A stretch of 64,000 bases of DNA, from IMG/VR virus record IMGVR_UViG_3300029826_000001, positions 3,304-67,303 of that record; one strand, 5' to 3'. The notes beneath the pieces were generated by a model that was given only the letters and a program-made list of their open reading frames with translations, did not search any database and was not told the DNA's origin. Positions 560 to 62,179 of the stretch are shown one piece after another (the first letter of the stretch is position 1; every line of letters starts with the position of its first letter). This DNA comes from a virus. A program made the translations under genes and the position numbers.

Positions 560-631
560 TTAAGCCAATAATTACTATAATGCATTAAGCAAAAAACCAA
601 CAAAGGTTACAAAATATCAAAAGGACTAGAT
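560..631 (+). promoter_or_regulatory. early promoter/leader cassette P1
   Basis: TTAAGCCAATAATTACTATAAT ... AAAAAACCAAC ... AAGGACTAGAT-ATG. Confidence 0.85.
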
Positions 632-859
632 ATGACAAAAACAGAGCAATTAAAACAGCTTATCGAAAACAACGAAATGGATAAGGCACTTTCACTTGCT
701 AAGTCATTTAAGATTTGGGATAGAAAGGAGGATAAAGAGGTGGTTATATTGGCTCATGAGTGCAATGTTAACCCAGACTTTTACAGACAGATAGGAAAGG
801 ATGTTCCAGCTTGTATTGAGGCTGGAGTAAACACGCTGAAAAGAATTTACTTGGACTAG
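632..859 (+). CDS. hypothetical early protein
   Basis: ORF directly after P1 and its RBS. Confidence 0.75.
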   Translation: MTKTEQLKQLIENNEMDKALSLAKSFKIWDRKEDKEVVILAHECNVNPDFYRQIGKDVPACIEAGVNTLKRIYLD

Positions 860-869
860 GAGGTTTATT

Positions 870-1097
870 ATGATGAGTGTAAATTTTATTATGGACTACG
901 AAAGTGGTATCGCATCAGATGTTGATACGTTGAAAAATTTTGCAGAAGGAATCAAAGACGGTTCTGTGTGGGGTCTTCAGGGTCACTACGGAAGAACTGC
1001 AAAAGCAATGATTGATGATGGATGGATTGAGCGTAATGGTGAGCTTACTGAAAAGGCTCTTGAATTTATAGCAGATGAGGAGATTGATAGTGAATAA
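870..1097 (+). CDS. hypothetical phage protein
   Basis: AGGAGG RBS; W-x-LQG-x-YGR-x-A motif typical of a small phage protein family. Confidence 0.75.
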   Translation: MMSVNFIMDYESGIASDVDTLKNFAEGIKDGSVWGLQGHYGRTAKAMIDDGWIERNGELTEKALEFIADEEIDSE

Positions 1098-1572
1098 TAT
1101 ACCAGTAAAGATTAAGGTTGAGACGGGTGGGCTTATCCCAGAATATAAAACAGATGGAGCTGGTTGTTTCGACCTATTTTCTCCAGATGATTATGTTTGG
1201 GAGACAGTAGCAATCGGTGGAGGTTTGGTTAAGGCAACTTGCGTGATTGACCTAAAAGTGAAGTTCGAGGTTCCAGACGGGTATATCATGAATATCTACC
1301 CAAGAAGTGGTTGGGGGTTCAAGATGGACATTCAACTTGCAAATGGTACTGGTAAAATTGATTCAGACTACAGAGGAAATGTAGCGGTGAAACTCATCAC
1401 ATATATTGAGAGAGATAGGTTGCCAGATTTAAGAAGAGGTGTTGGAATTGCTCAGGCTGAAATCATGCCAGTGTATAGAGCAGAGTTTGAGGTTGTCGAT
1501 GATCTATCTGAGACAAATAGAGGTGAAGGAGGTTTTGGTTCCACTGGTCACCACAGAGAGCACAAGGAGTAA
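1090..1572 (+). CDS. dut: dUTPase (trimeric)
   Basis: Motifs AGCFDL, PRSG, GKIDSDYRG, IAQ, RGEGGFGSTG; GTG start after GAGGAG preferred. Confidence 0.95.
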   Translation: MNNIPVKIKVETGGLIPEYKTDGAGCFDLFSPDDYVWETVAIGGGLVKATCVIDLKVKFEVPDGYIMNIYPRSGWGFKMDIQLANGTGKIDSDYRGNVAVKLITYIERDRLPDLRRGVGIAQAEIMPVYRAEFEVVDDLSETNRGEGGFGSTGHHREHKE

Positions 1573-1586
1573 GAATAGGAGGTATT

Positions 1587-1913
1587 ATGACTGATGATGA
1601 AAAAAGAAAAAACCTATCCAAAAACATAGAATATCTAGCTGGACACTTTAGGTCTCATGCAATGCTATCAAGGCTGTTAAAATGTCCTCCTAAGTTTGTA
1701 AATAGGGCAGTAAATACACCAAATGAATTAAGTATTGCATCAACCGATTGTGCAAGTAAGTCTTTGTGTATATCAGAAGAAGTGCTTCTTGGGGATTTGA
1801 AAACATTCAAGAAGTCTGTAGCAAGATGGATAAAAGATAAAAAAAGGATGATAGATGATAGAAGAGAAAGTAGAACTAGAAGTAAAAGACCTAAAAGCTC
1901 CAGTGCTAGGTGA
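1587..1913 (+). CDS. hypothetical protein, possibly HTH-like
   Basis: AGGAGG RBS; basic and helical. Confidence 0.6.
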   Translation: MTDDEKRKNLSKNIEYLAGHFRSHAMLSRLLKCPPKFVNRAVNTPNELSIASTDCASKSLCISEEVLLGDLKTFKKSVARWIKDKKRMIDDRRESRTRSKRPKSSSAR

Positions 1914-2919
1914 CATTCACTACCCAGTAACAGTTGTTGATATTGATGCACTTATAGATAAGTTCAAGAATATAAAAAATATTGACCTTGAAGATGAAAA
2001 TGTGAAAGAACACTATGCTCTGATAAGAGATGGTCAAAGACAATTCCAGAAAGCAAGGACGGCTATCGAGACAGCTAGAAAAGAGTTCAAAGCTCCAGCT
2101 ATTGCTTATGGCAAAAAAGTTGATGAGGTTGCAAAATCTCTTCAGGAAAAGATTGCTCCATATGAACAGTTCTTTGTAGAGCAGAGGAAGATTTATGATG
2201 ACCATGAAGCGAAGCTTAAAAAAGAAGCTGAAGAGGCAGAACGTAAGCGTATTGAGAAAATCAACAATAAGATTGATTTCATAAGAAACCTACCTCTTAC
2301 ACTTATTGATAAGTCGTCTGATGACATAAGGACATCTCTAAGTGATTTAAGAGCTGAGGACATAAACGATGAAACATACGAGGAGTTCACAGACATAGCA
2401 AAGCAAGTTCACGAGGTTACTTGTCTTACTCTTCAGAATATGGTTGATTCAAAAGCTGAAATCGAGCGTATAGAGAACCAAAGAAAAGAAGAGCTGAGAA
2501 TACAGCAGGAAGAAAAAGAGAAGCTAAGAAAAGAAGCTGAAGAAGCAAGAAAAGCTCAAGAAGAGGCTGAAAGAAAACTAAAAGAACAAGCTGATGCAAT
2601 CAGGGCTAAAGAAGAAGCAGAAGCAAAAGCAAAAGATGATAAAGAGATAAGAGTAAAAAGAGAAGAAGAAGAGGCGAGAATTGAAAGAGAAAAGAAAGAA
2701 CAAGAGCAAAAAGAAAGAGATGAAGCAGAAGCAAGAAAAGCTCAAGAAGAGGCAAGAATCAAAGCTGAGTATGAAGCTAAGTCCGAGTCAATCAAGGAAG
2801 CTAGAAGAGAGTCAATCGAAGGCATTGCAACCATTTCTGGTCTAAGTAAAGTAAAAGCAAGAATGATTGTTGAGGCAATAGAGCAAGGTGAAGTTCCTCA
2901 CATCAAATTCGAGCTATAA
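1855..2919 (+). CDS. coiled-coil phage protein (DUF1351-like)
   Basis: ARTAIETARKEFKAP motif and long E/K/R/A heptad stretch. Confidence 0.6.
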   Translation: MIEEKVELEVKDLKAPVLGDIHYPVTVVDIDALIDKFKNIKNIDLEDENVKEHYALIRDGQRQFQKARTAIETARKEFKAPAIAYGKKVDEVAKSLQEKIAPYEQFFVEQRKIYDDHEAKLKKEAEEAERKRIEKINNKIDFIRNLPLTLIDKSSDDIRTSLSDLRAEDINDETYEEFTDIAKQVHEVTCLTLQNMVDSKAEIERIENQRKEELRIQQEEKEKLRKEAEEARKAQEEAERKLKEQADAIRAKEEAEAKAKDDKEIRVKREEEEARIEREKKEQEQKERDEAEARKAQEEARIKAEYEAKSESIKEARRESIEGIATISGLSKVKARMIVEAIEQGEVPHIKFEL

Positions 2920-2934
2920 GTAGAAGCCCTAATA

Positions 2935-36300: not shown

Positions 36301-36344
36301 TTTCAAAACTAAGATAAAAACACAATACAAAGTTAAGAAATAAA

Positions 36345-36400
36345 TAAGTCAATAATTGTTATAATATTCTTTGCAATAAAACCAACACAAAGGATTAGAT
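36345..36400 (+). promoter_or_regulatory. early promoter/leader cassette P2
   Basis: TAAGTCAATAATTGTTATAAT...AAAACCAAC..AAGGATTAGAT-ATG. Confidence 0.85.
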
Positions 36401-39829: not shown

Positions 39830-39870
39830 TTAATCTAAAATATAATTCCATTTTAGATAAAGAATTTTTA
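39830..39870 (+). terminator. AT-rich hairpin after the SSB gene
   Basis: ATCTAAAAT / ATTTTAGAT stem followed by a T run. Confidence 0.4.
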
Positions 39871-39889
39871 AGGTAAGTATTGTTATAAT
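39867..39889 (+). promoter_or_regulatory. promoter for the ncRNA/initiator unit
   Basis: TTTAAGGTAAGTATTGTTATAAT; variant of the early promoter lacking the CCAATAA core and the AACCAAC leader. Confidence 0.75.
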
Positions 39890-39895: not shown

Positions 39896-40160
39896 ACCTA
39901 TGAAGGAGGGTTTGTTGGTTGCTTCCCATCCTTCAAAAAGTAGGTAGGAGTAACAGCCTTAGCTCCGATTCTTGACATGAAGCTAGTTTCCTAGTCCGAA
40001 CGGTCGCTTCATTCAAGAAGGTTCCTTATGTAATTTTAATGCAGTTGTCCAACTGTATCAGACTTTGGGTGCCACCCCTCTTCCCCTTTAGGCACCCAAG
40101 TTTGATTATCTGACTGTTGCATTAAGATTATCCTCAAGGATTTGGCATTGGACAACTGCT
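39896..40160 (+). ncRNA. structured multi-hairpin RNA; candidate antisense regulator of early leaders
   Basis: Stems ACCTA-TGAAGGA-GGG/CCC-TCCTTCA-TAGGT, TTCTTGA-ATGAAGC/GCTTCAT-TCAAGAA and TTGGGTGCC/GGCACCCAA; first stem starts 7 nt after TATAAT; no credible ORF. Confidence 0.7.
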
Positions 40161-43928: not shown

Positions 43929-43936
43929 ATTATACA
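43929..43936 (-). promoter_or_regulatory. -10 box for the tRNA operon
   Basis: TGTATAAT on the minus strand about 17 nt upstream of tRNA-Gly. Confidence 0.5.
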
Positions 43937-43952
43937 AGAGTAAACCTTATAG

Positions 43953-51216: not shown

Positions 51217-51386
51217 TGGAGTATCCACTATTCCCAGCAACAAGAAGCAACGAGATTACAGAAGGATATTACTTCTGTATTGTTGGTCAAATCAGTCGAG
51301 GAACTTGTAGTAAGAAAGTGCAGAAGATTATGAGAAGAAATGGTTCTCATGAGTATTTCACATACCATCTGGTATCAGAAAGGTAA
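51213..51386 (+). CDS. hypothetical early protein (57 aa, not in ORF track)
   Basis: ATGA-coupled: MMEYPLFP...LVSER. Confidence 0.6.
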   Translation: MMEYPLFPATRSNEITEGYYFCIVGQISRGTCSKKVQKIMRRNGSHEYFTYHLVSER

Positions 51387-51396
51387 GGAGAAGCAG

Positions 51397-51696
51397 ATGA
51401 GAAGAGAAGAGCTTCGTAGAAAAATAGAAAAGCTAATATCAAGTGGTCATTCCAAGAATAAGATAGAGCTGATTGATGTTTTGTATTATAAGACGGGTGG
51501 TGCTCAAAAGGTTGTGGTCGTGGAATTAAAGATGTATGGTGCACTCTCTTCATCTATTAGGGTTCACTCCAGCGATAGTGCAGAGAAGGCATTGTTGTCT
51601 GCTATTGATAGGCACACCAATGGCGGTGAGCTGGACATGAGTAATTCGGTAACTGGAAAAAGTAGTGATAACACAGCATTGGTAGAGGAGTTATAG
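51397..51696 (+). CDS. hypothetical protein
   Basis: AAGGAG RBS before ATG 51397. Confidence 0.65.
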   Translation: MRREELRRKIEKLISSGHSKNKIELIDVLYYKTGGAQKVVVVELKMYGALSSSIRVHSSDSAEKALLSAIDRHTNGGELDMSNSVTGKSSDNTALVEEL

Positions 51697-51697
51697 T

Positions 51698-51883
51698 ATG
51701 ACAAACTCAGAAGCAAGAAAACTAAAAGTAGGAGACAGAATTAAAGTCTCCACATGGAACAGAGAAGGCAAAAAGACTTGTGAGAGAGATATTGTATGTA
51801 TCGACTCACTTGGTATCGGAATAAGGTTGTTTGGATGGAATCCGTTCTATGTACAGCCACATGAAATTGTAGATAAGGTTTAG
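51698..51883 (+). CDS. small SH3/KOW-like protein
   Basis: LKVGDRIKV; GAGGAG RBS. Confidence 0.6.
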   Translation: MTNSEARKLKVGDRIKVSTWNREGKKTCERDIVCIDSLGIGIRLFGWNPFYVQPHEIVDKV

Positions 51884-51885
51884 CA

Positions 51886-52140
51886 ATGAGTAAAGTAAGA
51901 GGCAAAAAAGAGGAAATCACTTGTGCTTGTGGTTGTGGAAGAAAAAGACTCGTTAGAGTTGCAGATATAAAACGTGGATGGGGGAAATACTTCAACAAGT
52001 CATGCAAAGCAAGACATCAGGAAAAGAGAACTGGTCAATATGCTGATTACCTACATAGAAGAGCAACGTGTACAAGCGAGGTTGACTGCATTGAAAGCAG
52101 TTTCCACCCGCACGACCCATATTCTCTCGGTCAAGAATAA
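51886..52140 (+). CDS. zinc-finger-like phage protein
   Basis: C.CGCG.....R.AD.KRGWGKY..KSCKA..Q..RTG. Confidence 0.7.
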   Translation: MSKVRGKKEEITCACGCGRKRLVRVADIKRGWGKYFNKSCKARHQEKRTGQYADYLHRRATCTSEVDCIESSFHPHDPYSLGQE

Positions 52141-52147
52141 GTAATAT

Positions 52148-52203
52148 TTAAGCCAATAATTGTTATAATACAGATACCAACAAACCAACAAAAAGGACTA
52201 AAA
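52148..52203 (+). promoter_or_regulatory. early promoter/leader cassette P5
   Basis: TTAAGCCAATAATTGTTATAAT...ACCAACAAACCAAC AAAAAGGACTAAAA-ATG; motif duplicated. Confidence 0.85.
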
Positions 52204-52488
52204 ATGAAATTAACTACCTTCTCAGTAAGAGACTTTGACGATAAACTAACTGGTCATGTACTGATTGATATTTCAGACAGAGACAAAGCAAAGGTAGAGT
52301 TTGTATTAAACTATCTTGCTAACATCGGTGGATGGAGCATAGCTAACTGCCCTAACGAGGAAGATGGTGTTTATTCTGACTCAATTTCTGTTCTTTCATG
52401 TGAAGTAAAGCTCGCAAAGGAATATTACAAAGATGCAAAGACTGAACTTCAAAAGCTAATAAAATCAATTCGTGATACCAATTTCTAG
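52204..52488 (+). CDS. hypothetical early protein
   Basis: First ORF after P5. Confidence 0.7.
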   Translation: MKLTTFSVRDFDDKLTGHVLIDISDRDKAKVEFVLNYLANIGGWSIANCPNEEDGVYSDSISVLSCEVKLAKEYYKDAKTELQKLIKSIRDTNF

Positions 52489-52498
52489 GAGGCATAAT

Positions 52499-52699
52499 AT
52501 GGAAAGAGTAATCATGTCAATCATAAACGGGCAAAGAAAACAAGCATTGAAGCAACTACTTGAAGATGGATACAAGTTGTCTGACCTTACTGTTGAGCTT
52601 GTAGACAGAAATATGGTAAAAGAGATTCCAGTAATGATTAGACTTGCTGAAGACCATTCGATTATCTCATACCATCCAGCAAACTTGAGGAGTCTATAA
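52499..52699 (+). CDS. hypothetical protein
   Basis: AGGAGG RBS before ATG 52499. Confidence 0.65.
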   Translation: MERVIMSIINGQRKQALKQLLEDGYKLSDLTVELVDRNMVKEIPVMIRLAEDHSIISYHPANLRSL

Positions 52700-53331
52700 T
52701 GAATATGGTTACAGACTATGAAGTTTATGGATGCTGGACATATGAAGATGTAAAAGGTGTATGTCCAAAGTGCTCATCCACTCTTGAGCTAGTACCAGAA
52801 GAAGGTCACTATAACTCTAAGTATTGGAGGTTAAAGAGGGATGATGGGCTGGACTTGTATTGTTGTCCAAAAGGATGTAACAATGATTTTCTTGGAGCCA
52901 TAAGAGATAATGCAAAAGAGCTTGATGAAAAAACACTCAAGTCATTTTGTTTTGTGCATGATGTTGATTATGAAAAAGGTGACATGAACATACTCCATGA
53001 CTACTACTCCAGTGTTCATGTGTTGCCAGTAAGGGAGTTTGTTTACAACTATGAAGGTTTTGTGTCCTATCACCTTGAGGACTTTGGAGGAAAATCAGAT
53101 GTTGAATTTCTCATTGATGTTAAATCTGGATATGTCTTCTTTAATATACCAAGCCATGAGCCATTTGCATCATGGTTGTATGAACTTGTTTTCCCAAATG
53201 TTGCAGACCAAGACAGGCTATATGAGGCAGAAAGAAATGGATTTTGTATATGGAAGAGTACGATATCTAATACCATTCATGGATTGGATAATCCAAGTAT
53301 ACCAACTCACATAAGAAACAAGTTTAAGTAA
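52699..53331 (+). CDS. zinc-ribbon-containing hypothetical protein
   Basis: CPKC...CCPKGC. Confidence 0.65.
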   Translation: MNMVTDYEVYGCWTYEDVKGVCPKCSSTLELVPEEGHYNSKYWRLKRDDGLDLYCCPKGCNNDFLGAIRDNAKELDEKTLKSFCFVHDVDYEKGDMNILHDYYSSVHVLPVREFVYNYEGFVSYHLEDFGGKSDVEFLIDVKSGYVFFNIPSHEPFASWLYELVFPNVADQDRLYEAERNGFCIWKSTISNTIHGLDNPSIPTHIRNKFK

Positions 53332-53427
53332 GGAGAAGATGATGCGAAAGTACACTGACCATGTTTCTCACATTGAAAATATGAGTGATTTAATATCTAC
53401 CCATACAAAACCATTAGAGGAGGTGTA

Positions 53428-53643
53428 ATGAAGGCTACAACTGCTCTCAGAGAGCTTAAAAACGGTGAAACAGTTGTTGATGACAATTTCCACTGTTCTT
53501 ACTGCATACCAGACAGTGAGACACAGAAGCATCTTTGTGATGGCGAAGATATCTATGTTTCAAGAAAAGACAGTGGGGAGTTTATCTCTTTTGAGGATTT
53601 TCTTGATTTGAAGTACAACTTTAAGTTGGAAAGTTATAGGTAG
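53428..53643 (+). CDS. hypothetical protein
   Basis: GAGGAGG RBS. Confidence 0.65.
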   Translation: MKATTALRELKNGETVVDDNFHCSYCIPDSETQKHLCDGEDIYVSRKDSGEFISFEDFLDLKYNFKLESYR

Positions 53644-53692
53644 GAGGAAATGTAATGTGCAGTGAAAGCACTGGAGGAGCAAGGAGTATTAA

Positions 53693-53932
53693 ATGAGTGT
53701 AGTTAAATGTGCAAGAAGAGGATGTGATTCCATGTGTTGTACTGTGTACAGTAGTAGTTATGGATATCTTTGTAATGAATGCTTTGAAGAGATGAAAACA
53801 TATCTTGCAATAGAGTTCAAGTTCCATTCACTTGGAATAGCTGGAGAAATGTTCATGAATACAACAAAGCCAAACAAGTATGAGGCTGAATATATTGATA
53901 AGTGGTGCGATGAAGAATTTAAATCTATATGA
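53693..53932 (+). CDS. Cys-rich small protein
   Basis: C.R.GC...C..YS..YGYLC.ECFEE. Confidence 0.65.
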   Translation: MSVVKCARRGCDSMCCTVYSSSYGYLCNECFEEMKTYLAIEFKFHSLGIAGEMFMNTTKPNKYEAEYIDKWCDEEFKSI

Positions 53933-53943
53933 TTTATAAAACT

Positions 53944-54015
53944 TTAAGCCAACAATTGTTATAATACGTTATATCAAAAAACCAACTTGATATAAAAAAA
54001 TACTAAGGACTAGAT
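53944..54015 (+). promoter_or_regulatory. early promoter/leader cassette P6 with hairpin
   Basis: TTAAGCCAACAATTGTTATAAT; TTATATCAA-AAAACCAAC-TTGATATAA; AAGGACTAGAT. Confidence 0.85.
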
Positions 54016-54321
54016 ATGAAACATCCACTAAAATTTGACCACAGTAAAAAGGATATCTTTGAAGCTATAGGCACAACACCAGATGAGCTTAGTGAGGCAT
54101 TCGATGATAAGAACAATGAGTTGCACAGAGTTTCAAAAATACTCAATGTGATGATGGACAATGGTCACATCTCAAAAGATGGTCTTGGAGCGATGATTGC
54201 TACATTTTCGTTTATGACTGGAAATACTTCGGGCTACGTTTCTGAAATGATTGAAAAATACCTAGACTCTCTTGATGCCGACAATGTTGATGCGGTTTTG
54301 AAAAAGTGTGAGGAGGAATAA
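54016..54321 (+). CDS. hypothetical early protein
   Basis: First ORF after P6. Confidence 0.7.
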   Translation: MKHPLKFDHSKKDIFEAIGTTPDELSEAFDDKNNELHRVSKILNVMMDNGHISKDGLGAMIATFSFMTGNTSGYVSEMIEKYLDSLDADNVDAVLKKCEEE

Positions 54322-54666
54322 ATGGAAAAATATTACGATGTACCAAATGGAAAACTTGAGCTAGAGGTGAGATACCAAAAGGGTGGAAGCAACTGGGGAA
54401 CTGGAGACATCGAAAGAAGAGGTCTATACCTACACTTCACTACGGTTCAACTCGTAAATGGAAGTAGGACTGCTCAGCTATATGGAGATATCACTGGAAA
54501 CGATATCAAGAATGCAAAGGTCTTCTTGAAGGAGCTTGGAAGAAAGTCTGATAAGCAGATTGAATTAATCGAAAAGAAAATTCCTTTCGACAAACTTGCG
54601 GAGCTTTGGATTTCAAAACAATATCAAGAAGTGTTGAGAGTTATCGAGAATGAGGTGAAATCATGA
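54322..54666 (+). CDS. hypothetical phage protein
   Basis: Y.KGG.NW.TG..ERRG.YL motif; GAGG RBS. Confidence 0.7.
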   Translation: MEKYYDVPNGKLELEVRYQKGGSNWGTGDIERRGLYLHFTTVQLVNGSRTAQLYGDITGNDIKNAKVFLKELGRKSDKQIELIEKKIPFDKLAELWISKQYQEVLRVIENEVKS

Positions 54667-54959
54667 TTATTGAAGGTAGAGATATCGTATGTCTAACCCT
54701 AAAGAAAGACTATGACGCTGGAACATCTGTTAAGAGTGGTGAAGTAGTTGTTATCATCAGAGGGCTTATCGGATACGGACTCACAAGCTATGGTGAGAAA
54801 ACAAGAGAGTGGGTTGAAGAAATAAACAGAGATGTGTTTAAAGTAACCCCAGAGGATGAGGAGGCATACATCACTATGAGTATGTTTGGATGGGGGAATG
54901 AGCACTCTGTAAAGTCTCTCATGAAAGGCTTTGTAGGGAGAAAGAAAAATGACATATGA
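54663..54959 (+). CDS. hypothetical protein
   Basis: Coupled; SMFGW motif. Confidence 0.65.
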   Translation: MIIEGRDIVCLTLKKDYDAGTSVKSGEVVVIIRGLIGYGLTSYGEKTREWVEEINRDVFKVTPEDEEAYITMSMFGWGNEHSVKSLMKGFVGRKKNDI

Positions 54960-55242
54960 ACAAGCACAAATAATTGAGAAGTACTTTGATGCTGGGTATG
55001 CAGTAAAGATTTCATATGGTGGCTATGTAGATAGTTTCTGTACTGGATTCTACTTTGATGAAGAGGAAGAAAACTGCTATGTGTATGATTCTGAGGTTTT
55101 TACTGGTCAACCAGTAACAGACATTAATATTGGATGTGTCGAGGTGTTTGCTCCAGTTAGAGACCTTAGTAGCAAAGAGATTGATTATTTGGATGATCAA
55201 GACCAGTGGTTTGTAGAAAAAATAGATGGAGAAATAGTATGA
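54949..55242 (+). CDS. hypothetical protein
   Basis: Coupled acidic ORF. Confidence 0.65.
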   Translation: MTYEQAQIIEKYFDAGYAVKISYGGYVDSFCTGFYFDEEEENCYVYDSEVFTGQPVTDINIGCVEVFAPVRDLSSKEIDYLDDQDQWFVEKIDGEIV

Positions 55243-55631
55243 CAAAATCAGACCTAAAAACAACAATGGTATTTGTAACAAGAGGTGGTGAACAGAGAAT
55301 GGTGTTCAGAGGTAAAAAAAGAGGAGAAGATGCTCATGCTGGTGTTTCTGGATGGGGTATTCTCGATGACTACAATGAAGACCTATCTCATAAGACGGCA
55401 AGCCATCTCGACATGGTTGCCGTGTATGAGATGACATCAAACAAAGGTATTCATATGTTCTTGAAGTACGGTGAATACTCAGATGCTATGGTTCGTCTTA
55501 TTTGGGCTTTACCATCAGAGGATATTGATAAAACAAAAAAATATACACTTGAAGAGGTTGCACAGATGGTTTCAGATGGAGAAATCGGTATTGTGTTTGG
55601 TAAAGACGGTGCAAAATTAATAAGGGAGTAA
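55239..55631 (+). CDS. hypothetical phage protein
   Basis: KSDLKT.M...TR.G...Y.EDL......D..AVY...LIW pattern. Confidence 0.65.
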   Translation: MTKSDLKTTMVFVTRGGEQRMVFRGKKRGEDAHAGVSGWGILDDYNEDLSHKTASHLDMVAVYEMTSNKGIHMFLKYGEYSDAMVRLIWALPSEDIDKTKKYTLEEVAQMVSDGEIGIVFGKDGAKLIRE

Positions 55632-55633
55632 CC

Positions 55634-56053
55634 ATGAAAACGATTGAGTATATTATTGATAACTACACAAGTGGTTGTATTGACGGAAGGGATATTATAA
55701 GGCTTGGTCAATTTTTGACAGAGGAGCAACTTGAGAAAGTTGGTATGAGCTTAAAAGATGAGTTCAAAGGTAAGTATGAGCCTATTGAGTTCACGAGAGA
55801 GAATATTCTTTTGCAACTTGAGAAAGACGTTGAGTTCGGTTTTGAAAAAGCACTTAACCAAAGAGGTATTTCTGCTGGAATGATGCATGAAGTTGTGAAG
55901 ATGTGGAACTGGGTTCTTGAGGAAGGACTTGAGGATTTTGATGACTACGCTATGTATGGTCTCCCACTATTCAAGGCTACAGCAGTGAAGTATGGTTTTG
56001 ATAACCCTATCGGTGATGATACTGGTAGAGAGTCGTATTATGATGCAAGATGA
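55634..56053 (+). CDS. hypothetical phage protein
   Basis: DGRD..RL..F...DV.FGFEKAL.QRGISA..M...YGLPLFKATA.KYG. Confidence 0.7.
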   Translation: MKTIEYIIDNYTSGCIDGRDIIRLGQFLTEEQLEKVGMSLKDEFKGKYEPIEFTRENILLQLEKDVEFGFEKALNQRGISAGMMHEVVKMWNWVLEEGLEDFDDYAMYGLPLFKATAVKYGFDNPIGDDTGRESYYDAR

Positions 56054-56065
56054 AAGGATGATATT

Positions 56066-56356
56066 ATGTGTAGAGGAATGTTAACACAAGATGCAATCAA
56101 CCTATCGACAGCAATTTTCGGTAGAGAGGTTTACATAAGAGAAATGAGACTTATTCCTTATGTTAGGAACTGTCTCGTAAATGGTGGAACTATCAGCATG
56201 GGAAGTGTTGATGATGATGAAAAAATGTTCTTGGATGAATGGGAAGAAAAAGGTCTCATCAAGATAAGCGGAAACAAAATATCATGCTCAGAGGAGTTTT
56301 GGAACATCACAAATTTAATGATGTGGTCAACTTATGTAAATTACGAAAAGGAGTGA
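56066..56356 (+). CDS. hypothetical phage protein
   Basis: RG.L...E.RL.PY...FW pattern. Confidence 0.65.
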   Translation: MCRGMLTQDAINLSTAIFGREVYIREMRLIPYVRNCLVNGGTISMGSVDDDEKMFLDEWEEKGLIKISGNKISCSEEFWNITNLMMWSTYVNYEKE

Positions 56357-56359
56357 CAC

Positions 56360-56653
56360 ATGAGCAGAAGTAAAAAAAGAAACAGCATTGAGAATAAAGT
56401 ATATGGACTCATCGAGTTGAGTCCTTTTATCTATGGTGGAAACAAAGCTACGAATGTTGTAAAGCATATGTTTCATGAAGAGTTTGGAATATTGCTTACA
56501 GATGAGCAGATTAAGTTTATAGCATCTGTAGACAGAGCTAGAAGAAGGGTGCTTAAATCAAATCCAGAGCTGGACAATAGAACCAGAGTGAAAGAACTCC
56601 AGAAGGAAGATGCAAAACACTATGCGAAAACAAAAAATAAGAGGATGCTGTAA
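56360..56653 (+). CDS. hypothetical protein
   Basis: AAGGAG RBS. Confidence 0.65.
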   Translation: MSRSKKRNSIENKVYGLIELSPFIYGGNKATNVVKHMFHEEFGILLTDEQIKFIASVDRARRRVLKSNPELDNRTRVKELQKEDAKHYAKTKNKRML

Positions 56654-56868
56654 TGACTAAACAGAGATTTGCATGGCTACCAACAATTGTATGGAACATG
56701 AAGAGTAGAAACTACAGATACACAGTAGCTTGGCTTGTATGGTACTGGGATGACGGAACTGGAGAAGAAGACAAACCAACTCATTTTCACAGACTATCGG
56801 ATGACCCGTATGAAGATACAAGGTTATGGAAAAGGCACAAGACCAGAACAAACACAAACAGATGGTAG
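56653..56868 (+). CDS. hypothetical Trp-rich protein
   Basis: FAWLP....WL motif; coupled. Confidence 0.6.
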   Translation: MTKQRFAWLPTIVWNMKSRNYRYTVAWLVWYWDDGTGEEDKPTHFHRLSDDPYEDTRLWKRHKTRTNTNRW

Positions 56869-56883
56869 ATTGCTAAGTAATAT

Positions 56884-56958
56884 TTAAGCCAATAAATGTT
56901 ATAATCAATGCATGAATAAAACCAACTATTCATAAATAAATTACAGAAGGACTAGATT
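56884..56958 (+). promoter_or_regulatory. early promoter/leader cassette P7 with hairpin
   Basis: TTAAGCCAATAAATGTTATAAT; ATGAATA-AAACCAAC-TATTCAT; AAGGACTAGA. Confidence 0.85.
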
Positions 56959-57309
56959 ATGGAAAATCTATTTAGACTCAACAGAAACGGACATACGGCA
57001 GAGGAAATTTTCGGTAAACCTACAGACGAGCTTGTTAAGATAACAATGGAAGATTTATACGCAGATATTCCTTTTGCACTGTTTATCTACAGAGCAACAA
57101 CGGTGAAGGCTGATTTAATGGCTCCAGTATCTATTATTCTTGGTGTATTAATCGGAAGAAGGCTTGAAGAGAGAGAAGACATGGTTGAGTATCTTGTTAA
57201 CTCAGTCAGGGATAGGGGTGATAGAGAGATTGTGATTAGGGCATTGAGTTTCATAACGGACAAGGAAGATATGATGAAAATTTTAAAAAGAGAGGAAGAG
57301 CAATGTTAG
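56959..57309 (+). CDS. hypothetical early protein
   Basis: First ORF after P7. Confidence 0.7.
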   Translation: MENLFRLNRNGHTAEEIFGKPTDELVKITMEDLYADIPFALFIYRATTVKADLMAPVSIILGVLIGRRLEEREDMVEYLVNSVRDRGDREIVIRALSFITDKEDMMKILKREEEQC

Positions 57310-57614
57310 AAAATTACGATATAAGGGAAATTAACGTATATGATGGTAATTTGAGTGTACCCAATACATTCCTTTACCTAATCGGTAAAAACCCGTCAAA
57401 TCGCATTCTATGTATGAAAATAGAGATTTATTCTCTTGATAGGGATACATATAAACCTAGAAACATTTCAACTGTTTACTGTCTACAGAAAGATGTAGTT
57501 GATAATAGGGATGAACTTATACACATGGCAATAGCAAATGTTACTGATTTGCCATACAGCATGAGAAAAAAAATGCTTATAGATGATGTAAACATTTGGG
57601 AGATTGAGCAATGA
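57303..57614 (+). CDS. hypothetical protein
   Basis: Coupled ORF. Confidence 0.6.
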   Translation: MLENYDIREINVYDGNLSVPNTFLYLIGKNPSNRILCMKIEIYSLDRDTYKPRNISTVYCLQKDVVDNRDELIHMAIANVTDLPYSMRKKMLIDDVNIWEIEQ

Positions 57615-57763
57615 GATATGAGGTCACATTCAAGGTGATGGTAGATGCTCCAAGCCCAACAAAGGCTAAAGAGTACGGTCAGAAATTTTGTGACACAATA
57701 AACAGTAAAGACTCACGCAATAAAGCTTGGGTGTCTCAAGTGGTGGAGAAAAAGAATGGTTGA
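57611..57763 (+). CDS. small hypothetical protein (50 aa, not in ORF track)
   Basis: ATGA-coupled MRYEVTFKV...KNG. Confidence 0.55.
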   Translation: MRYEVTFKVMVDAPSPTKAKEYGQKFCDTINSKDSRNKAWVSQVVEKKNG

Positions 57764-58001
57764 AGAATATTGGTTGGTAGTAGCAATAGCCATTGCTATT
57801 TTGTTTATGTATCTTAGAATGGAAAGGTATGTTGTTGTATGCTCTCAAGATGACTTCACTGCTTTCAGTGGAAGAAAGGCATTCATGACATATGATGATG
57901 CGTTGAAGTTCGCTGAATCAAAAGCAGACCATTTTGACTATGTGTTTATTGAGCATGGAGAGAATCAGGTTGATGTTGTAAGGATGAATGGTAGCAAATG
58001 A
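57756..58001 (+). CDS. small membrane-anchored protein
   Basis: N-terminal TM segment; GGAG RBS. Confidence 0.6.
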   Translation: MVEEYWLVVAIAIAILFMYLRMERYVVVCSQDDFTAFSGRKAFMTYDDALKFAESKADHFDYVFIEHGENQVDVVRMNGSK

Positions 58002-58062
58002 TGAAAGTTAGTGAAGACAGCATCTTTAAATATCTTGAAAAGATAGTATCAGGAGAGAGACA

Positions 58063-58260
58063 ATGAATGACAGAGTAAAAGAAATCCTTGAGAACATCAA
58101 GAAGATGGGTTTAAGTGAGTTGCAAGAATACAAGCGTAGGTTGTGGCTATCTACATCAAAGGACAAAACAAAACTGATTGATGCTTGTGATGAGAGAGAA
58201 TCAATGTTAAGCAAAAATAGTCCAATGATTGAATACTCGGATTTTGACGATATAAATTAA
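58063..58260 (+). CDS. hypothetical protein
   Basis: AGGAG RBS. Confidence 0.6.
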   Translation: MNDRVKEILENIKKMGLSELQEYKRRLWLSTSKDKTKLIDACDERESMLSKNSPMIEYSDFDDIN

Positions 58261-58267
58261 GCAACTA

Positions 58268-58337
58268 TTAAGCCAATAAATACTATAATATGATATGTCA
58301 AAAAACCAACTTGACAAATAAAAATAAGGACTAGAAA
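58268..58337 (+). promoter_or_regulatory. early promoter/leader cassette P8 with hairpin
   Basis: TTAAGCCAATAAATACTATAAT; TGTCAA-AAAACCAAC-TTGACA; AAGGACTAGAA. Confidence 0.85.
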
Positions 58338-58649
58338 ATGGCATACGCATACCCAATATGGAATAAAGTTGAAGCTTGTATCTATAACTCCGATAAAAGC
58401 TATGGAGCGAAAGAAACAAGCAAGGTAAACATCTTGGTAGGTAGTAGTAAGTCGAACTCTTACGAACTTGCAGAGGCAATCACAACAAAAAGAAGATACT
58501 TCGATGAGGATGCAAATGAATACAGATGGAAATTCAGACATTCTGTAGACGGTGTTATCCTCAAGGAAATAATCTTTAAAGACAACAAAGGTAAAGCTGG
58601 TGAGTTTATCAAAGAGCGTTCTGCACTCAAAAGAATGAAGGGGTTGTAA
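58338..58649 (+). CDS. hypothetical phage protein
   Basis: YPIWN.V.ACIY.S.KSYG...VG.S.SNS motif. Confidence 0.7.
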   Translation: MAYAYPIWNKVEACIYNSDKSYGAKETSKVNILVGSSKSNSYELAEAITTKRRYFDEDANEYRWKFRHSVDGVILKEIIFKDNKGKAGEFIKERSALKRMKGL

Positions 58650-58963
58650 TGACATACGAAGAGTTTGAGAAGAGAAGAGTAGAGCACTACGAAGGCATGA
58701 GAGAGGCTGGTGGTATTGCAAATGCATTTCAGGATGGATATGGAGATGACTACCCAGACTACACATATGAATCAGCAATGAAAGAGGCAGATGAGCATTA
58801 CGAAAAGTACGAACAGTTAGCAAAAGATGCGAACATGACGCTCGATACACTTGAGCTGTTTGATATCTTGGTTGAAAAATCAGCAAGAAAGCTGTTTGCA
58901 CAAGCAGACAAGAACAGAGACAAAGGTATGCTTAAAGCATCACTTGGAAGAAGGGTATCATGA
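58649..58963 (+). CDS. hypothetical protein
   Basis: Coupled ORF. Confidence 0.65.
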   Translation: MTYEEFEKRRVEHYEGMREAGGIANAFQDGYGDDYPDYTYESAMKEADEHYEKYEQLAKDANMTLDTLELFDILVEKSARKLFAQADKNRDKGMLKASLGRRVS

Positions 58964-59193
58964 CAAAGACAGTGAGGGGAACATACGGGTCTCTCAATAT
59001 CCCATGCAATGTATTTGTATATGTTAATCGTGATATGGTCTGGTACGCTGTTGAGGGTAGCTCAAATGTTAACGGAACATATGAGCAGATTGAAGATGGT
59101 GTTGATATTGAAAAAATCCATGATTGTGAGTATTTTTCATGGAAAGAAGATATCAACTCAGAAGATGATTTAGTAATTGCTGTAGAAGCATAA
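58960..59193 (+). CDS. hypothetical protein
   Basis: GTYGS...WY.VEGS.NVN motif. Confidence 0.65.
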   Translation: MTKTVRGTYGSLNIPCNVFVYVNRDMVWYAVEGSSNVNGTYEQIEDGVDIEKIHDCEYFSWKEDINSEDDLVIAVEA

Positions 59194-59200
59194 GGGAAGA

Positions 59201-59509
59201 ATGATGGGATTATACCTAGAGCCTAAAGGCGATAAAAATGAAAGAATCAAGTGGCTTGGTGACAACAAAGAGAAAACATATCATCTCGGTGTAGAAGACC
59301 CACTTATTAAGTATGAGTCAATTCCAGTAGATGAGGTTTTGGTATGTCTTGTAGATAACGGAGCTTTTGTAGCAATTGCTGTGTGTTACAGTAGACACGA
59401 ATATGGTGCTTTTGCTAAAGAAGATGGAAGAATCAAGATTTGGGCTACACTAAAGAAGAATGTAGCAAAAGCTGTGTGTCCTATGTGGGATTCATATATT
59501 AAAAACTAA
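59201..59509 (+). CDS. hypothetical phage protein
   Basis: VCLVDNG.F.A..V.Y...E...F...D.R...W. Confidence 0.7.
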   Translation: MMGLYLEPKGDKNERIKWLGDNKEKTYHLGVEDPLIKYESIPVDEVLVCLVDNGAFVAIAVCYSRHEYGAFAKEDGRIKIWATLKKNVAKAVCPMWDSYIKN

Positions 59510-59519
59510 GGAGAAAAAG

Positions 59520-60209
59520 ATGTTAGAAAAACTAGATACAAACGATTTGAGATTGCTACTCGCATACTGTGACAAGAATAGTCCTAAGTTAGAGCTGAAT
59601 GGTATTTGGATTAATGGAGAAAAAGGTCACATGGTAAGTACCAATACAAGAGCACTAATCGTGCTAAAAACAGCTCCAAGTGATGTAAACAATATAGTAC
59701 ATAGGGATAGTGTAGAACTGCTCACAAAGCTCACTACAGTGAATATGTCAAAAGGTGTTTGGATTTCAAACGAGAAGCTGTCAAACGGAAACGGAGAGAA
59801 GGTCATTGATGGTATTGGTATGCAGACATACGACATCCACAGCAGAGATAAAAAAGAGAATGTGATGGTAGTTGGTTCGGTCATACATGGAAAGTTCCCA
59901 GACTACACAAGAATCATTGCAGATGAGTCAAAATATGATACAGATTGGGATGGCGAAACAAAGTATTCAGATGATAACAACGAAAAACCTATCACAAAAA
60001 TGAAGGCAGAAAAGGTTCATGCTGAGTTCTTAAAGCAATCAATTGCTATGACTGGAACAGTTGTTGATGATGCATACATGAAGCCTATCATGGACTACAT
60101 CAAGCAGAAGGGTATCAGTGAGGTAACTTTGAAGTTTATCTCAACAGCGCATCCGATATATGTTGAGCATGATAACTTTGATTTTGTTGTTATGCCTGTT
60201 GTATTTTAA
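59520..60209 (+). CDS. DNA sliding-clamp (DnaN beta) domain-like protein
   Basis: LNGI.......VSTN..AL, GKFPDY.RII and C-terminal VVMP as in beta-clamp domains. Confidence 0.65.
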   Translation: MLEKLDTNDLRLLLAYCDKNSPKLELNGIWINGEKGHMVSTNTRALIVLKTAPSDVNNIVHRDSVELLTKLTTVNMSKGVWISNEKLSNGNGEKVIDGIGMQTYDIHSRDKKENVMVVGSVIHGKFPDYTRIIADESKYDTDWDGETKYSDDNNEKPITKMKAEKVHAEFLKQSIAMTGTVVDDAYMKPIMDYIKQKGISEVTLKFISTAHPIYVEHDNFDFVVMPVVF

Positions 60210-60216
60210 TTTGGCA

Positions 60217-60259
60217 ACCAGCACCAAGCTGTATTGGTGTTGGTATAATTTAATTTTTT
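60217..60259 (+). terminator. intrinsic terminator-like hairpin
   Basis: ACCAGCACCAA / TTGGTGTTGGT stem then a T-rich tail; its 3' arm overlaps TGGTATAAT. Confidence 0.5.
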
Positions 60260-60271
60260 AAAGGAGATGTT

Positions 60272-60490
60272 ATGACCAAGACCATGCTTATTTACGGGAA
60301 GACAAACTCATACTTTAGAGGTATGTTGTTTGAGGAAGCTATCAAGGAAAGATTGAAGCTTGTTGAGCCAAGATACTACGAGATGGAGACATCTAGCAAT
60401 CTCACATATCAAGAAGAGCTAATCAAGAAGGAGATGAGAGATGCCATTGAATGGTGTAGAAAGATGATAGAAGAGTTCGATGAAGACTAA
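60272..60490 (+). CDS. hypothetical protein
   Basis: AAGGAG RBS. Confidence 0.65.
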   Translation: MTKTMLIYGKTNSYFRGMLFEEAIKERLKLVEPRYYEMETSSNLTYQEELIKKEMRDAIEWCRKMIEEFDED

Positions 60491-60497
60491 GTATACT

Positions 60498-60572
60498 TTA
60501 AGCCAATTAATGTTATGATATAACTATCAAATAAAAACCAACATTTGATAAAACCAACACTAAGGACTAGAC
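60498..60572 (+). promoter_or_regulatory. early promoter/leader cassette P9 with hairpin
   Basis: TTAAGCCAATTAATGTTATGAT; TATCAAAT-AAAAACCAAC-ATTTGATA; second AAACCAAC; AAGGACTAGAC. Confidence 0.85.
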
Positions 60573-60830
60573 ATGACAGAAGAACGAAACATTGTTCTAT
60601 GGTACAGAAACAGAGCAGACAAAGACAAACTATACACATTTGATGAGATAGCTGATGGATTCCTTGAGAGTGAATTCTACTCAGACTACAAGAAGGAAAT
60701 GTATCCAAGTATCCAACAAGCACTGGTACATTACATCACAATGGAAGAAGGGCTGAATAGCTCTTATGAGGTGGATATGCTTGACCCCCTGCTTGGTCAT
60801 GTAATCAAAAGACACAAGGAGATGAGATGA
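60573..60830 (+). CDS. hypothetical early protein
   Basis: First ORF after P9. Confidence 0.7.
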   Translation: MTEERNIVLWYRNRADKDKLYTFDEIADGFLESEFYSDYKKEMYPSIQQALVHYITMEEGLNSSYEVDMLDPLLGHVIKRHKEMR

Positions 60831-61483
60831 AGTATGAAGAGTTTACACCAATGCACCAGATACACAAAGAAGATGTTGAAGGTGAGAGATTTAAGATTGA
60901 GAGACTTCATTTATCTGAAGAGGTTGTTGAGAGAGAGAAAAGAACAGCATGGAGAACTGCTGGTGGATATAATGAGGTGAGAGGTCTTGAGGCTGGAACC
61001 TATGTGAAGCTGGTTGATAAGAATAAACGTGAAATTGTGATGTCTGATACATGGATGGAACAAGCTACAAATATTGATTTTGTGAGAAAGGCAAATGGTC
61101 ATGTATTGATTGGTGGTCTTGGTATCGGTATGGTTGTACTTGCAATCCAAGATAAGCCAGAGGTTGAGTCAGTTACAGTAGTTGAGCTTCATCAGGAGGT
61201 TTATGACTTGACAATGAAGCAACTCAAACCTCACCTCAATGATAAGGTCAAAGTGGTGGTACAAGACATCCATGACTTCATACCAGACAGAAAGTATGAT
61301 GTCATCTACTGCGATATTTGGAATAACATCACCAGTGATAACTGGGAGGAGATGAAAGACCTCACAAAGAAGTTCAAGTATAAGGTGAACAGAGAGAATA
61401 AAAACCATATGCTAGACCACTGGAGAAAGAATGATGTTCATAGGCTGTACAAGAAAGAGCAAAATGAAAGATACTTCTGGTAG
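60827..61483 (+). CDS. class I SAM-binding protein (spermidine-synthase-like methyltransferase fold)
   Basis: VMSDT..E, VLIGGLGIG, VVE, YDVIY.DIW. Confidence 0.8.
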   Translation: MKYEEFTPMHQIHKEDVEGERFKIERLHLSEEVVEREKRTAWRTAGGYNEVRGLEAGTYVKLVDKNKREIVMSDTWMEQATNIDFVRKANGHVLIGGLGIGMVVLAIQDKPEVESVTVVELHQEVYDLTMKQLKPHLNDKVKVVVQDIHDFIPDRKYDVIYCDIWNNITSDNWEEMKDLTKKFKYKVNRENKNHMLDHWRKNDVHRLYKKEQNERYFW

Positions 61484-61492
61484 GAGGAAGAC

Positions 61493-61837
61493 ATGATTGA
61501 AGAAAAAGTTACCATGTACATCAGTGATGATAATAAAGTAAGAAGTGATGATAGGAAGCGTGTTGAAGAGTATGAGAAGCTTGTGTTAATCATCCAAGAT
61601 GTACAAAAAGAATTTGATGAAAGATTCATTGATAGTGAGTGGAAGTTTTTGATACAAATAGAAAATAGTTCCTATTCGAGAAATGAAAGGCTTGAGTATA
61701 TTGTTTCACATAAAGAGAATGGTAGAACTCCAGATGAGGAGCTATGCACAAGAGAAGATAAAATTATTGATGCAATAAAAGATATGTTCAAACCAGTACA
61801 GATAGTGTCTGGAAGCATTTATTATTGGTGTAAATAG
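61493..61837 (+). CDS. hypothetical protein
   Basis: AGGAGG RBS. Confidence 0.65.
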   Translation: MIEEKVTMYISDDNKVRSDDRKRVEEYEKLVLIIQDVQKEFDERFIDSEWKFLIQIENSSYSRNERLEYIVSHKENGRTPDEELCTREDKIIDAIKDMFKPVQIVSGSIYYWCK

Positions 61838-61846
61838 GAGTAAAGT

Positions 61847-62116
61847 ATGATAGACACAAACTCATGTGAGATTGTTGGACGCATTGGTAGCCTTAGAGTT
61901 TTCTCAACTATGAATATGACAAAGCAAGAAGGAACAAAAAACATACCAAATCCAAATAGGAGATGGTGGTTCCAGTTCTGGATTCAGAAAACAATAGAGG
62001 TTCCAAATATGGTTCCTATGACTAATGTTATTGTAGACCATTTGAATAATGCAATATATATCCATCCAGCTGTCTTGGATGAGCTGAAGAAGCTTGATGG
62101 ATTTCATTTAGTATAA
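61847..62116 (+). CDS. hypothetical protein
   Basis: AGGAG RBS; I.HP....L motif. Confidence 0.65.
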   Translation: MIDTNSCEIVGRIGSLRVFSTMNMTKQEGTKNIPNPNRRWWFQFWIQKTIEVPNMVPMTNVIVDHLNNAIYIHPAVLDELKKLDGFHLV

Positions 62117-62123
62117 GTACATT

Positions 62124-62179
62124 TTAAGCCAACAATTGTTATAATAATGAACCTTAAAAACCAACAAAAAGGATTATAC
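62124..62179 (+). promoter_or_regulatory. early promoter/leader cassette P10
   Basis: TTAAGCCAACAATTGTTATAAT; CCTT-AAAAACCAACAAA-AAGG; GGATTATAC-ATG. Confidence 0.85.

Follow-up and report, generated by a model that had tools for sequence, protein, structure and literature searches.

What reads the short leader box that recurs at the head of early operons in an uncultured phage with a 67-kilobase (kb) genome? The phage is represented by an IMG/VR virus record (IMGVR_UViG_3300029826_000001) of 67,303 base pairs (bp) with a 104-bp terminal repeat, and the window that we analysed, a stretch of 64,000 nucleotides (nt), comprises its bases 3304-67303; coordinates are those of the window unless the genome is named. 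A preliminary description had proposed ten promoter/leader cassettes (P1 to P10) whose shared motif, AAACCAAC, stands on hairpins at the 5' end of the transcript and is selected at the RNA level. Here, the observation itself is confirmed, its promoter half is explained by sequence likeness as host mimicry, and the RNA-level interpretation is partly supported: selection on the motif and the hairpins stand, whereas the unrelatedness of the stems does not, and the pairing of P4 and P10 into the Shine-Dalgarno sequence is at chance level. We also report a structured, putatively non-coding stretch at 39896 whose predicted loops complement two conserved leader blocks, making it a candidate reader of the early leaders.

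The 21-nt promoter core, TAAGYCAAYWAWTRYYATRAT, has ten exact matches on the plus strand of the window (at 561, 36345, 46221, 50986, 52149, 53945, 56885, 58269, 60499 and 62125) against 0.06 expected from shuffles, which bears out the ten cassettes. An eleventh match, with 2 mismatches, lies at 529 just 5' of P1, and two further cassettes beyond the window, at genome 1578 and 2622, bring the 67.3-kb genome to 12. From its 5' side a cassette consists of a first TAAG box, 7 nt, TAAGCCAAY and AAWTGT-TATAAT; after the -10 hexamer come 9-13 variable nt, A(3-6)CCAAC, a variable stretch and AAGGACTAGAnATG. Whichever anchor the cassettes are aligned on, the blocks are invariant and the spacers between them are unalignable, without conservation, suggesting selection on the blocks rather than recent copying. 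The leader box thus appears to be under selection, as had been proposed, and an RNA partner for it is plausible but unproven. An A stands 6 or 7 nt past the -10 in 12/12 copies and is taken as the start of transcription, all starts being predicted, not mapped.

From these starts, the leaders would be 25-50 nt long and hold two conserved blocks. Block A, A(3-6)CCAAC(AAA), lies at about +8 to +17 and is present in 11/12 cassettes, missing only from the copy at genome 2622. The exact motif AAACCAAC occurs 14 times against 2.5 expected, 13 times on the plus strand and 11 times within the ten cassettes of the window. CCAAC starts 15-19 nt past the -10 (16-17 nt in 9/11 copies), whereas between the motif and the ribosome site there are anywhere from 3 to 27 nt. 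Block B, GGACUAG, is the 3' half of the ribosome-binding site together with its spacer; as GGACTAG it occurs in 6/12 cassettes and also marks the ribosome site of the gene at 870. Of the two cassettes thought to carry the motif twice, P9 does so with two exact copies, and the second copy in P5 is partial (ACCAAC). The motif was discarded as a candidate Chi-like or restriction site, being neither enriched nor avoided outside the cassettes. The ten cassettes in the window are listed below.

P1, 550..631, plus strand: TAAG boxes at 550 and 561; -10 at 576-581; AAACCAAC at 594-601; GGACTAG at 623-629; ATG at 632; degenerate tandem core at 529-549.
P2 (TAAGTCAAT variant), 36334..36400, plus strand: AAACCAAC at 36379; ribosome-site block GGATTAG; 5' of the RecT/exonuclease module.
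P3, 46210..46274, plus strand: AAACCAAC at 46253; without block B; first TAAG box degenerate.
P4, 50975..51039, plus strand: AAACCAAC at 51019; GGACTAG at 51031.
P5, 52138..52203, plus strand: ACCAAC, then AAACCAAC at 52182; block B matched in 6/7 letters (GGACTAA).
P6, 53933..54015, plus strand: stem 53969-53977/53987-53995 (9 bp); loop A+AAACCAAC; GGACTAG at 54007.
P7, 56874..56958, plus strand: stem 56912-56918/56927-56933 (7 bp, unrelated arms); loop AAACCAAC; GGACTAG at 56949.
P8, 58258..58337, plus strand: stem 58296-58301/58311-58316 (6 bp, TGTCAA/TTGACA); GGACTAG at 58328.
P9, 60488..60572, plus strand: stem 60525-60532/60543-60550 (8 bp); AAACCAAC in the loop (60535) and again directly before the ribosome site (60551); GGACTAG at 60564.
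P10, 62114..62179, plus strand: AAACCAAC at 62158; ribosome-site block GGATTAT; likely ATG at 62180.

A cassette fills the whole intergenic space (60-137 bp), to the extent that in P4, P5, P8, P9 and P10 the TAA of the first TAAG box is the stop codon of the upstream gene. The terminator scan found no intrinsic terminator-like site before or at any cassette. The early genes flanking the cassettes are ORFans, without known family, and no paralogous genes that might bear on the proposed role of the cassettes as recombination joints were found next to them. Given the terminal repeat, the early region would run from 50986 across the end of the record to 631. The cassette at genome 2622 (genome 2511-2659, TAAGCCAAACATTGTTATGAT) departs from the rest: it lacks AAACCAAC and the first TAAG box, its leader would be only about 13 nt long, and a GC-rich hairpin (GGGGTTG...CAACCCC) and another TATAAT lie upstream.

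Perfect stems of 9, 7, 6 and 8 bp in P6, P7, P8 and P9, respectively, close no more than 3 nt from the motif, which agrees with the preliminary description in placing the motif in the loop. Stems of at least 6 bp are found in 4/11 cassettes against 0.06 expected, and none of 20,000 shuffles reached four. If transcription starts at the predicted A, 6-7 nt past the -10, they begin at +1 or +2. Their AU-rich pairing is weak, with -4.1 to -5.5 kcal/mol at 37 C, and less stable still if the start is the 7th nt. The claim that the stems differ completely does not hold, since an inner arm T(A/G)TCAA/TTGA(T/C)A is common to P6, P8 and P9, with only P7 unrelated: the P8 stem (TGTCAA/TTGACA) is one compensatory A-T to G-C pair apart from that of P6 (TTATATCAA/TTGATATAA), and the P9 stem (TATCAAAT/ATTTGATA) is a hexamer of the P6/P8 kind with an extra AT on each arm. 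The 4-bp stems that were reported for P4 and P10, pairing into the ribosome site, are present but at chance level, shuffles giving 0.8 cassettes with at least 4 bp. The arms of the related stems (P6, P8 and P9) are 9, 9 and 14 nt apart; this spacing, the different arms of P7 and the compensatory pair between P6 and P8 fit a hairpin better than a double-stranded operator, and on account of the spacing a dimer site on duplex DNA was rejected. The hairpin cassettes keep the usual distance from -10 to motif, any added length being on the 3' side, so that, irrespective of its reader, the motif would fall into the loop whenever a hairpin forms at the 5' terminus. A limit on the RNA-level interpretation is that only 4/11 motifs are in hairpins, three of those four stems being related.

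The arm hexamers recur elsewhere in the window. At 36175-36300, just 5' of P2 and the RecT/exonuclease/replication genes, a 23-bp inverted repeat (CCTATTGAYA-N5-TRTCAATA) stands three times in tandem, and after it comes DNA very rich in AT; the arrangement looks like iterons with an unwinding region, or a tripartite operator. The half-sites TTGAYA/TRTCAA of these units are the arm hexamers of P6, P8 and P9 in the opposite (everted) order; TTGAYA..TRTCAA pairs number 5 against 0.6 expected, and everted pairs 7 against 0.7.

The complement of the motif was sought outside coding sequence. GTTGGTT has seven plus-strand copies, one of which lies in a 371-nt gap (39819-40189) free of open reading frames (ORFs), with no plus-strand ORF of at least 40 amino acids (aa) inside it. 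The gap opens with an AU-rich hairpin and a T run (39820-39857) and then holds two features.

Class promoter TAAGGTAAGTATTGTTATAAT, 39869..39889, plus strand: extended -10, without CCAA; agrees with the cassette core in 19/23 positions.
Candidate non-coding RNA, 39896..40112, plus strand: predicted start at 39896; 3' end uncertain.

Folded from 39896, the candidate RNA reaches -90.2 kcal/mol against -67.8 kcal/mol for shuffles (z -4.76; 0/200 shuffles as good). In the predicted fold, stem-loop 1 starts at +1 and its 14-nt loop (39911-39924) holds TTTGTTGGTT, the exact complement of AACCAACAAA, which is found in 5/11 tagged leaders; in the remaining ones the match is 7-8 nt long. In stem-loop 3, CTAGTCC (39991), the complement of GGACTAG, lies in the 8-nt inner loop (39990-39997, CCUAGUCC), and a 9-bp GC-rich stem follows at about 40064-40100. 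TTTGTTGGTT and CTAGTCC each occur once on the plus strand of the genome, both in the 371-nt gap, and both are predicted to be exposed in loops (with a probability of 0.76-0.99 of being unpaired, the mean over the RNA being 0.41). Shuffles of the region gave a block A match of at least 10 nt in 0.08% of cases and a block B match of at least 7 nt in 6.6%. Both complements at 7 nt or more are found in 8 of 2,681 genome windows, taken to be those over the 39896 locus since CTAGTCC is unique on the plus strand; at 6 nt or more the number is 51. The idea of a kissing-loop target thus gains a candidate partner, with predicted loops complementing AACCAAC(AAA) and GGACTAG.

Pairing was calculated from the loops alone together with an opening energy, because RNAduplex on whole hairpins gave spurious extended pairings. 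Block A sites reach predicted net energies of -5.8 to -9.2 kcal/mol and block B sites -5.7 to -9.0 kcal/mol, at an opening cost for the RNA of no more than 1.2 kcal/mol. Among 112 gene starts, 7/10 of the best predicted targets are cassette leaders, a ranking that is partly circular. One trend, not significant by our estimate, is that the full 10-nt block A is present in the four leaders without an exact block B, whereas block B is perfect in each of the four hairpin leaders, whose block A matches over only 7-8 nt. We noticed that the gene at ATG 870, the second of the P1 operon, has GGACTAG at 853-859 without a promoter or block A; it is a predicted target of loop 3, with the top block B energy among all gene starts.

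A search of Rfam 15 with 39780-40250 (E values up to 1) returned only three microRNA models on the AU hairpin (E 0.77-0.91), and at gathering thresholds the whole window gave only three transfer RNA (tRNA) matches. Two other sources of a complement were discarded. An inverted cassette remnant is ruled out by the order of the complements and their 70-nt separation. GUUGGUU is common in D-loops, and the D-loop of the phage tRNA-Met, which holds it, was dropped as a chance complement.

The promoter half of the cassette is of a distinct class. TGn precedes TAT(A/G)AT in 10/12 cores (an extended -10), and none of the 12 has a TTGACA-type -35 at the right place. A sigma-70 scan of 44001-64000 that required a -35 picked none of the eight -10 hexamers; its sole match inside P3 pairs TTAAAA with AATAAT, shifted from TATAAT. 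TAAG-N7-TAAG is found in one register in 9/12 cassettes, with the boxes 11 bp apart at about -38 and -27; counted from the predicted start, the hexamers span about -40 to -35 and -29 to -24.

Sigma-70 promoters of Campylobacter jejuni have TGxTATAAT, a periodic A/T signal replacing the -35 box, and a ribosome site AAGGA (PMC3656092), and the consensus of the -35 region in Campylobacter is TTTAAGTnTT (PMC3824568); the phage cassettes resemble these Campylobacterota promoters in TGnTATAAT without TTGACA and in the ribosome site AAGGA (PMC3656092, PMC3824568). The Helicobacter pylori regulator HP1043/HsrA is a transcriptional activator whose binding site, ttTAAG-5bp-tTTAAg, lies at -42 to -26 (PMC8345958). 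The phage hexamers, 11 bp apart at about -40 to -24, compare with -42 to -26 at the hp1227 promoter of H. pylori (PMC8345958), and 9/12 cassettes match the HsrA/HP1043 site in sequence and position, which marks them as putative binding sites.

A metagenome-assembled genome of Nautiliaceae includes a contig with a capsid relative (44% identity). Across 30 genomes of that family, TAAG-N7-TAAG-N10-12-TATAAT was counted 127 times (in 29/30 genomes) and its reversed control 8 times, and the form TAAGCnAA occurs 38 times against 0, which makes the phage TAAGCCAAY a host-like hemisite. In 2/4 host loci checked for tRNAs, tRNA-Phe lies directly behind the promoter. The phage copies are far more uniform than those of the host and add CCAAY after the second hexamer as well as the downstream leader box; no A-run-CCAAC box was found downstream of host promoters at the 13 sites inspected (12 loci). 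The promoter half is therefore an imitation, judged by sequence, of a putatively strong host promoter class of Campylobacterota type, and the host probably, not certainly, belongs to Campylobacterota. Four Nautiliaceae-family loci (L153, L158, L156 and L161) have TAAG-N7-TAAG promoters followed by conserved non-coding sequences, e.g., TTTCCTTAAATTTTACTTAAAGG and CAATTTCCCCTCCTTAAAAG, which may be host small RNAs.

Within the phage, the relaxed class pattern TAAG-N11-[TC]AT[AG]AT has exactly 14 genome matches: the 12 cassettes, the promoter at 39869 and a minus-strand tRNA promoter.

Fourteenth promoter-class member TAAGGTTTACTCTTGTATAAT, 43929..43949, minus strand: just 5' of the minus-strand tRNA cluster.

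The matches before the 39896 locus and the tRNA cluster suggest that the class is also used for phage RNA genes. The cluster comprises four tRNA genes (Gly-TCC, Ser-GCT, Asn-GTT and Met-CAT, from 43912 down to 43454) on the minus strand of a genome that otherwise reads on the plus strand.

We tentatively propose, as a possibility that stops short of being probable, that the early leaders are read by a two-loop antisense RNA and that the 5' hairpins present block A for loop-loop contact. Host RNA polymerase, perhaps with an HsrA-like activator, would fire every cassette early, yielding leaders with block A near the 5' end and block B in the ribosome site. In P6-P9 the hairpin from about +1 would present block A as a loop and probably also shield the 5' end from decay. 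The reader RNA would be made from 39896, from a promoter of the same class as those of its targets. Its loop 1 (UUUGUUGGUU) would pair with block A, over 10 bp in linear leaders and in a 7-8 bp loop-loop contact in P6-P9, and loop 3 (CUAGUCC) would pair with block B, covering the ribosome site and lowering translation and probably message stability. A single RNA could thus adjust translation across all early genes, most likely by repression. The broader claim is that at least 11 operons form an RNA-addressed early set, all bound by one structured two-loop phage RNA that switches translation or messenger RNA (mRNA) stability, with transcription borrowed from the strongest (tRNA-type, HsrA-box) promoter class of the host; we regard it as conceivable but somewhat doubtful.

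Several points weigh against this proposal. The pairings are short (7-10 bp), block B is missing in 3/11 tagged leaders (genome 1578, P3 and P10) and matched in 6/7 letters in P5, and the conserved A run 5' of AACCAAC is unpaired in the model. RNA pairing leaves unexplained the tight spacing of 15-19 nt from -10 to motif, and a fixed distance is equally compatible with a constraint at the DNA level or one anchored at the transcription start. Since the RNA promoter is of the class of its targets, delayed shut-off needs an extra assumption, e.g., a stable RNA that accumulates. The gap could be merely the 5' untranslated region of the replication-initiator-like gene at 40190, or an origin-related element, and the statistics of the partner search are partly post hoc. 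The host assignment is based on the 44%-identical capsid relative in a metagenome-assembled genome and on the style of promoter and ribosome site, and another relative, G001, uses TTGACA promoters. The sequencing runs listed with the phage include no RNA run that could speak to the transcript, its starts or its timing, and the phage, IMG/VR and metagenome contig sequences yielded no close-relative DNA in which tag and loop might co-vary.

A protein might read the leaders instead: a phage or host RNA-binding protein or sequence-specific nuclease acting on single-stranded A(3-6)CCAAC and/or GGACUAGA, in the manner of T4 RegB or the RegA repressor, with the complementary loops at 39896 arising by chance or serving as a decoy. 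We consider this rather unlikely, although it has a genuine chance of being right. The motif is predicted to be single-stranded in 10/11 leaders and forms the loop in all four hairpins, and the invariant first A of AAACCAAC, which RNA pairing does not need, would suit a protein. Block B likewise exceeds a normal ribosome site, much as T4 RegB cuts GGAG ribosome sites within a long consensus, GG*AGRAYARAA (PMC3014915). On the other hand, no early protein matches an RNA-binding or nuclease family (70 proteins against Pfam, 15 of them also against PHROGs), and a protein reader leaves unexplained why both complements lie in loops of one structured non-coding stretch. RegB and RegA resemble the proposed system in the coordinated post-transcriptional control of many early messages through a short sequence in the ribosome region (PMC3014915); they are proteins, whereas the candidate reader here is an RNA, with a second tag near the 5' end.

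Alternatively, the box may have no specific reader, being an A/C-only stretch optimised for promoter escape and an unstructured ribosome landing site; recombination would keep the cassettes alike, as in promoter-early stem-loops (PeSLs) of T4-type phages, and the hairpins would be mere 5' stabilisers that enclose the motif since it fills the only space next to +1. This is unlikely in our view, the small chance that we leave it coming from the lock of the motif to the -10 rather than to the ribosome site, and from the hairpin cassettes, in which that distance is unchanged and the extra length lies 3' only. The downstream regions of strong T5 promoters are known to matter for promoter strength, and genes for RecT and an exonuclease are present in the phage. 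Nevertheless, a composition effect does not suffice for CCAAC, five letters that are invariant in 11 copies beside saturated spacers, the pattern is unlike gene-conversion tracts, which should homogenise contiguous stretches, and the inspected host promoters of the class (13 sites, 12 loci) lack any such downstream box. Stem-loops at the 5' terminus are known to stabilise mRNA, as in Escherichia coli ompA and in leaders of Bacillus subtilis and SP82, and the stems of P6-P9 and of the candidate RNA would likewise begin at the 5' end, or 1-2 nt from it, if the predicted starts are right. They differ from a pure stabiliser in being weak and in enclosing 8-10 nt loops of conserved sequence, which a stabiliser would not need.

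Repeated promoter cassettes beside ORFans have a precedent in PeSLs (PMC2839356), which form many cassettes of about 70-100 bp with a strong host-type early promoter (PMC2839356, PMC4122927), a likeness shared here by 12 copies that fill intergenic gaps beside ORFans and have a predicted promoter. PeSL stem-loops are GC-rich, lie around or upstream of the promoter and act as terminators (PMC2839356). PeSL copies also recombine and thereby shuffle the genes that they flank, leaving differences among close relatives and mini-circles as traces. The phage stems are unlike them, occurring in 4/12 copies and being AU-rich, 3' of the -10, starting at about +1, without a T run and enclosing the leader box. 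As a repeated early promoter the cassette is thus like a PeSL, but it fails the PeSL feature of a terminator stem.

An operator in the DNA, with AAACCAAC at about +8 and AAGCCAAY at -26 as protein sites that bracket the -10 and switch the promoters on or off, is improbable. It would account for the tight spacing to the -10; the boxes agree in 7/8 letters in P6 and P10, their CC dinucleotides are 31-35 bp apart, i.e., about three helical turns, CCAA stands at -22 in all 12 mRNA cassettes, and both boxes are absent from the RNA-gene promoters (39869, and 43949 on the minus strand). TAAGCnAA is, however, ordinary in the host promoter class, where no downstream box follows, every copy is in one orientation and in the transcribed strand, and the extra copies in P9 and P5 lie at other distances. 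The same Pfam and PHROGs scans found no DNA-binding family among the early proteins, and the hairpins are left unaccounted for. Least credible is antitermination of the N/nut type, in which every early operon would have a boxB-like RNA hairpin that loads an antiterminator on RNA polymerase: the motif recalls it as a constant loop on stems that vary, close to where early transcripts start, and read-through control is conceivable where no intrinsic terminator separates the cassettes, but the lack of terminators also leaves none to overcome, only 4/11 tags are in hairpins, with loops of 8-10 nt and weak stems, and the scans recognised no N-like or Q-like protein among the early proteins.

The closest parallel for the proposed antisense RNA is the c4 antisense RNA of phages P1 and P7, which acts on the icd-ant leader (PMC8201110). 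Citron and Schuster (1990) reportedly found short exposed segments of that phage RNA to pair with two short leader blocks, one of them covering the ribosome site. The candidate RNA would match this logic, with two loop-exposed complements, one of them to the ribosome-site block, although it has no Rfam family match. c4 acts on a single operon of a temperate phage, whereas the tag here would be common to 11 leaders. Among the papers listed by a limited literature search on phage small RNAs and early genes, the RNAs target host genes or single targets and no shared leader tag was found, which does not establish absence.

As for the phage itself, genes for a portal, a protease, a major head protein, a tape measure, a major tail protein and a large terminase make it siphovirus-like, and nearly all its genes are on the plus strand. 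Its reads come from 3 DNA runs of a single marine-sediment study, whose fragments are identical, with no informative variants at the cassettes. Phage records gave no match to the early region (megablast) or the capsid protein (tblastn), nor to the RNA region at 39896 (blastn), and the replication-initiator protein has no close relative in IMG/VR. An IMG/VR pattern scan for core plus motif had 0 matches; motif plus ribosome site gave 117 stretches, with a single match each among the matches listed, and the core alone gave 17, with one match each and no multi-copy contig, both being at chance level. The capsid-based locus search yielded distant relatives (L009/G001 at 49%, and the Nautiliaceae contig L012 at 44%) and a 1.2-kb fragment at 75% (L010), and terminase matches include Helicobacter pullorum prophage-like records at 45%. 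As proteins, the nearest capsid relatives (P0002-P0008) have identities of 82-61%, and P0005 among them is encoded on a 70-kb contig. The phage cassette is absent from both distant relatives, G001 and L012. G001, the IMG/VR contig of L009 (capsid identity 49%, 27% GC), has repeated cassettes of its own at about 29142-39225, with AAAAACTTGACAAAATAA, a TATAAT-like -10, an A-rich leader and a conserved ribosome site AAAAAGGATTGAGAGATG; they are like those of our phage in design and different in sequence, the promoter being of the -35 type (TTGACA). No plus-strand complement of the AAAAAGGATTGAGAGATG block was found in G001, which at only 54% completeness is uninformative either way.

Two cassettes have neighbours of interest. 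P3 lies directly 3' of the large terminase gene and 5' of the DUF488/amidoligase/ParB-N genes. The genes behind it (46275-50977) encode a DUF488-N3a protein, a 668-aa protein with amidoligase, DAM-like-phage2 and phage GNAT-like domains, and a ParB-N protein, a content that suggests a DNA base-modification module. Divergent from P1, a lone 128-aa ORF without family lies on the minus strand (103-489), with a canonical TTGACT-17-TATAAT on the same strand directly before its ATG; it might conceivably be a regulator gene.

Repeated early promoter cassettes, e.g., PeSLs, are already known, and the promoter grammar of this phage appears, on comparison, to be copied from tRNA-type promoters of the host. 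Should the RNA link fail, a clean, rather ordinary early promoter array with a conserved leader box remains. If the link is true, a leader tag with matching loops in a phage RNA would be a new way to time early genes, a simple circuit of one RNA and many targets and an RNA counterpart of T4 RegB/RegA. Such a link would also provide an initial view of gene regulation in phages of deep-sea or sediment Campylobacterota.

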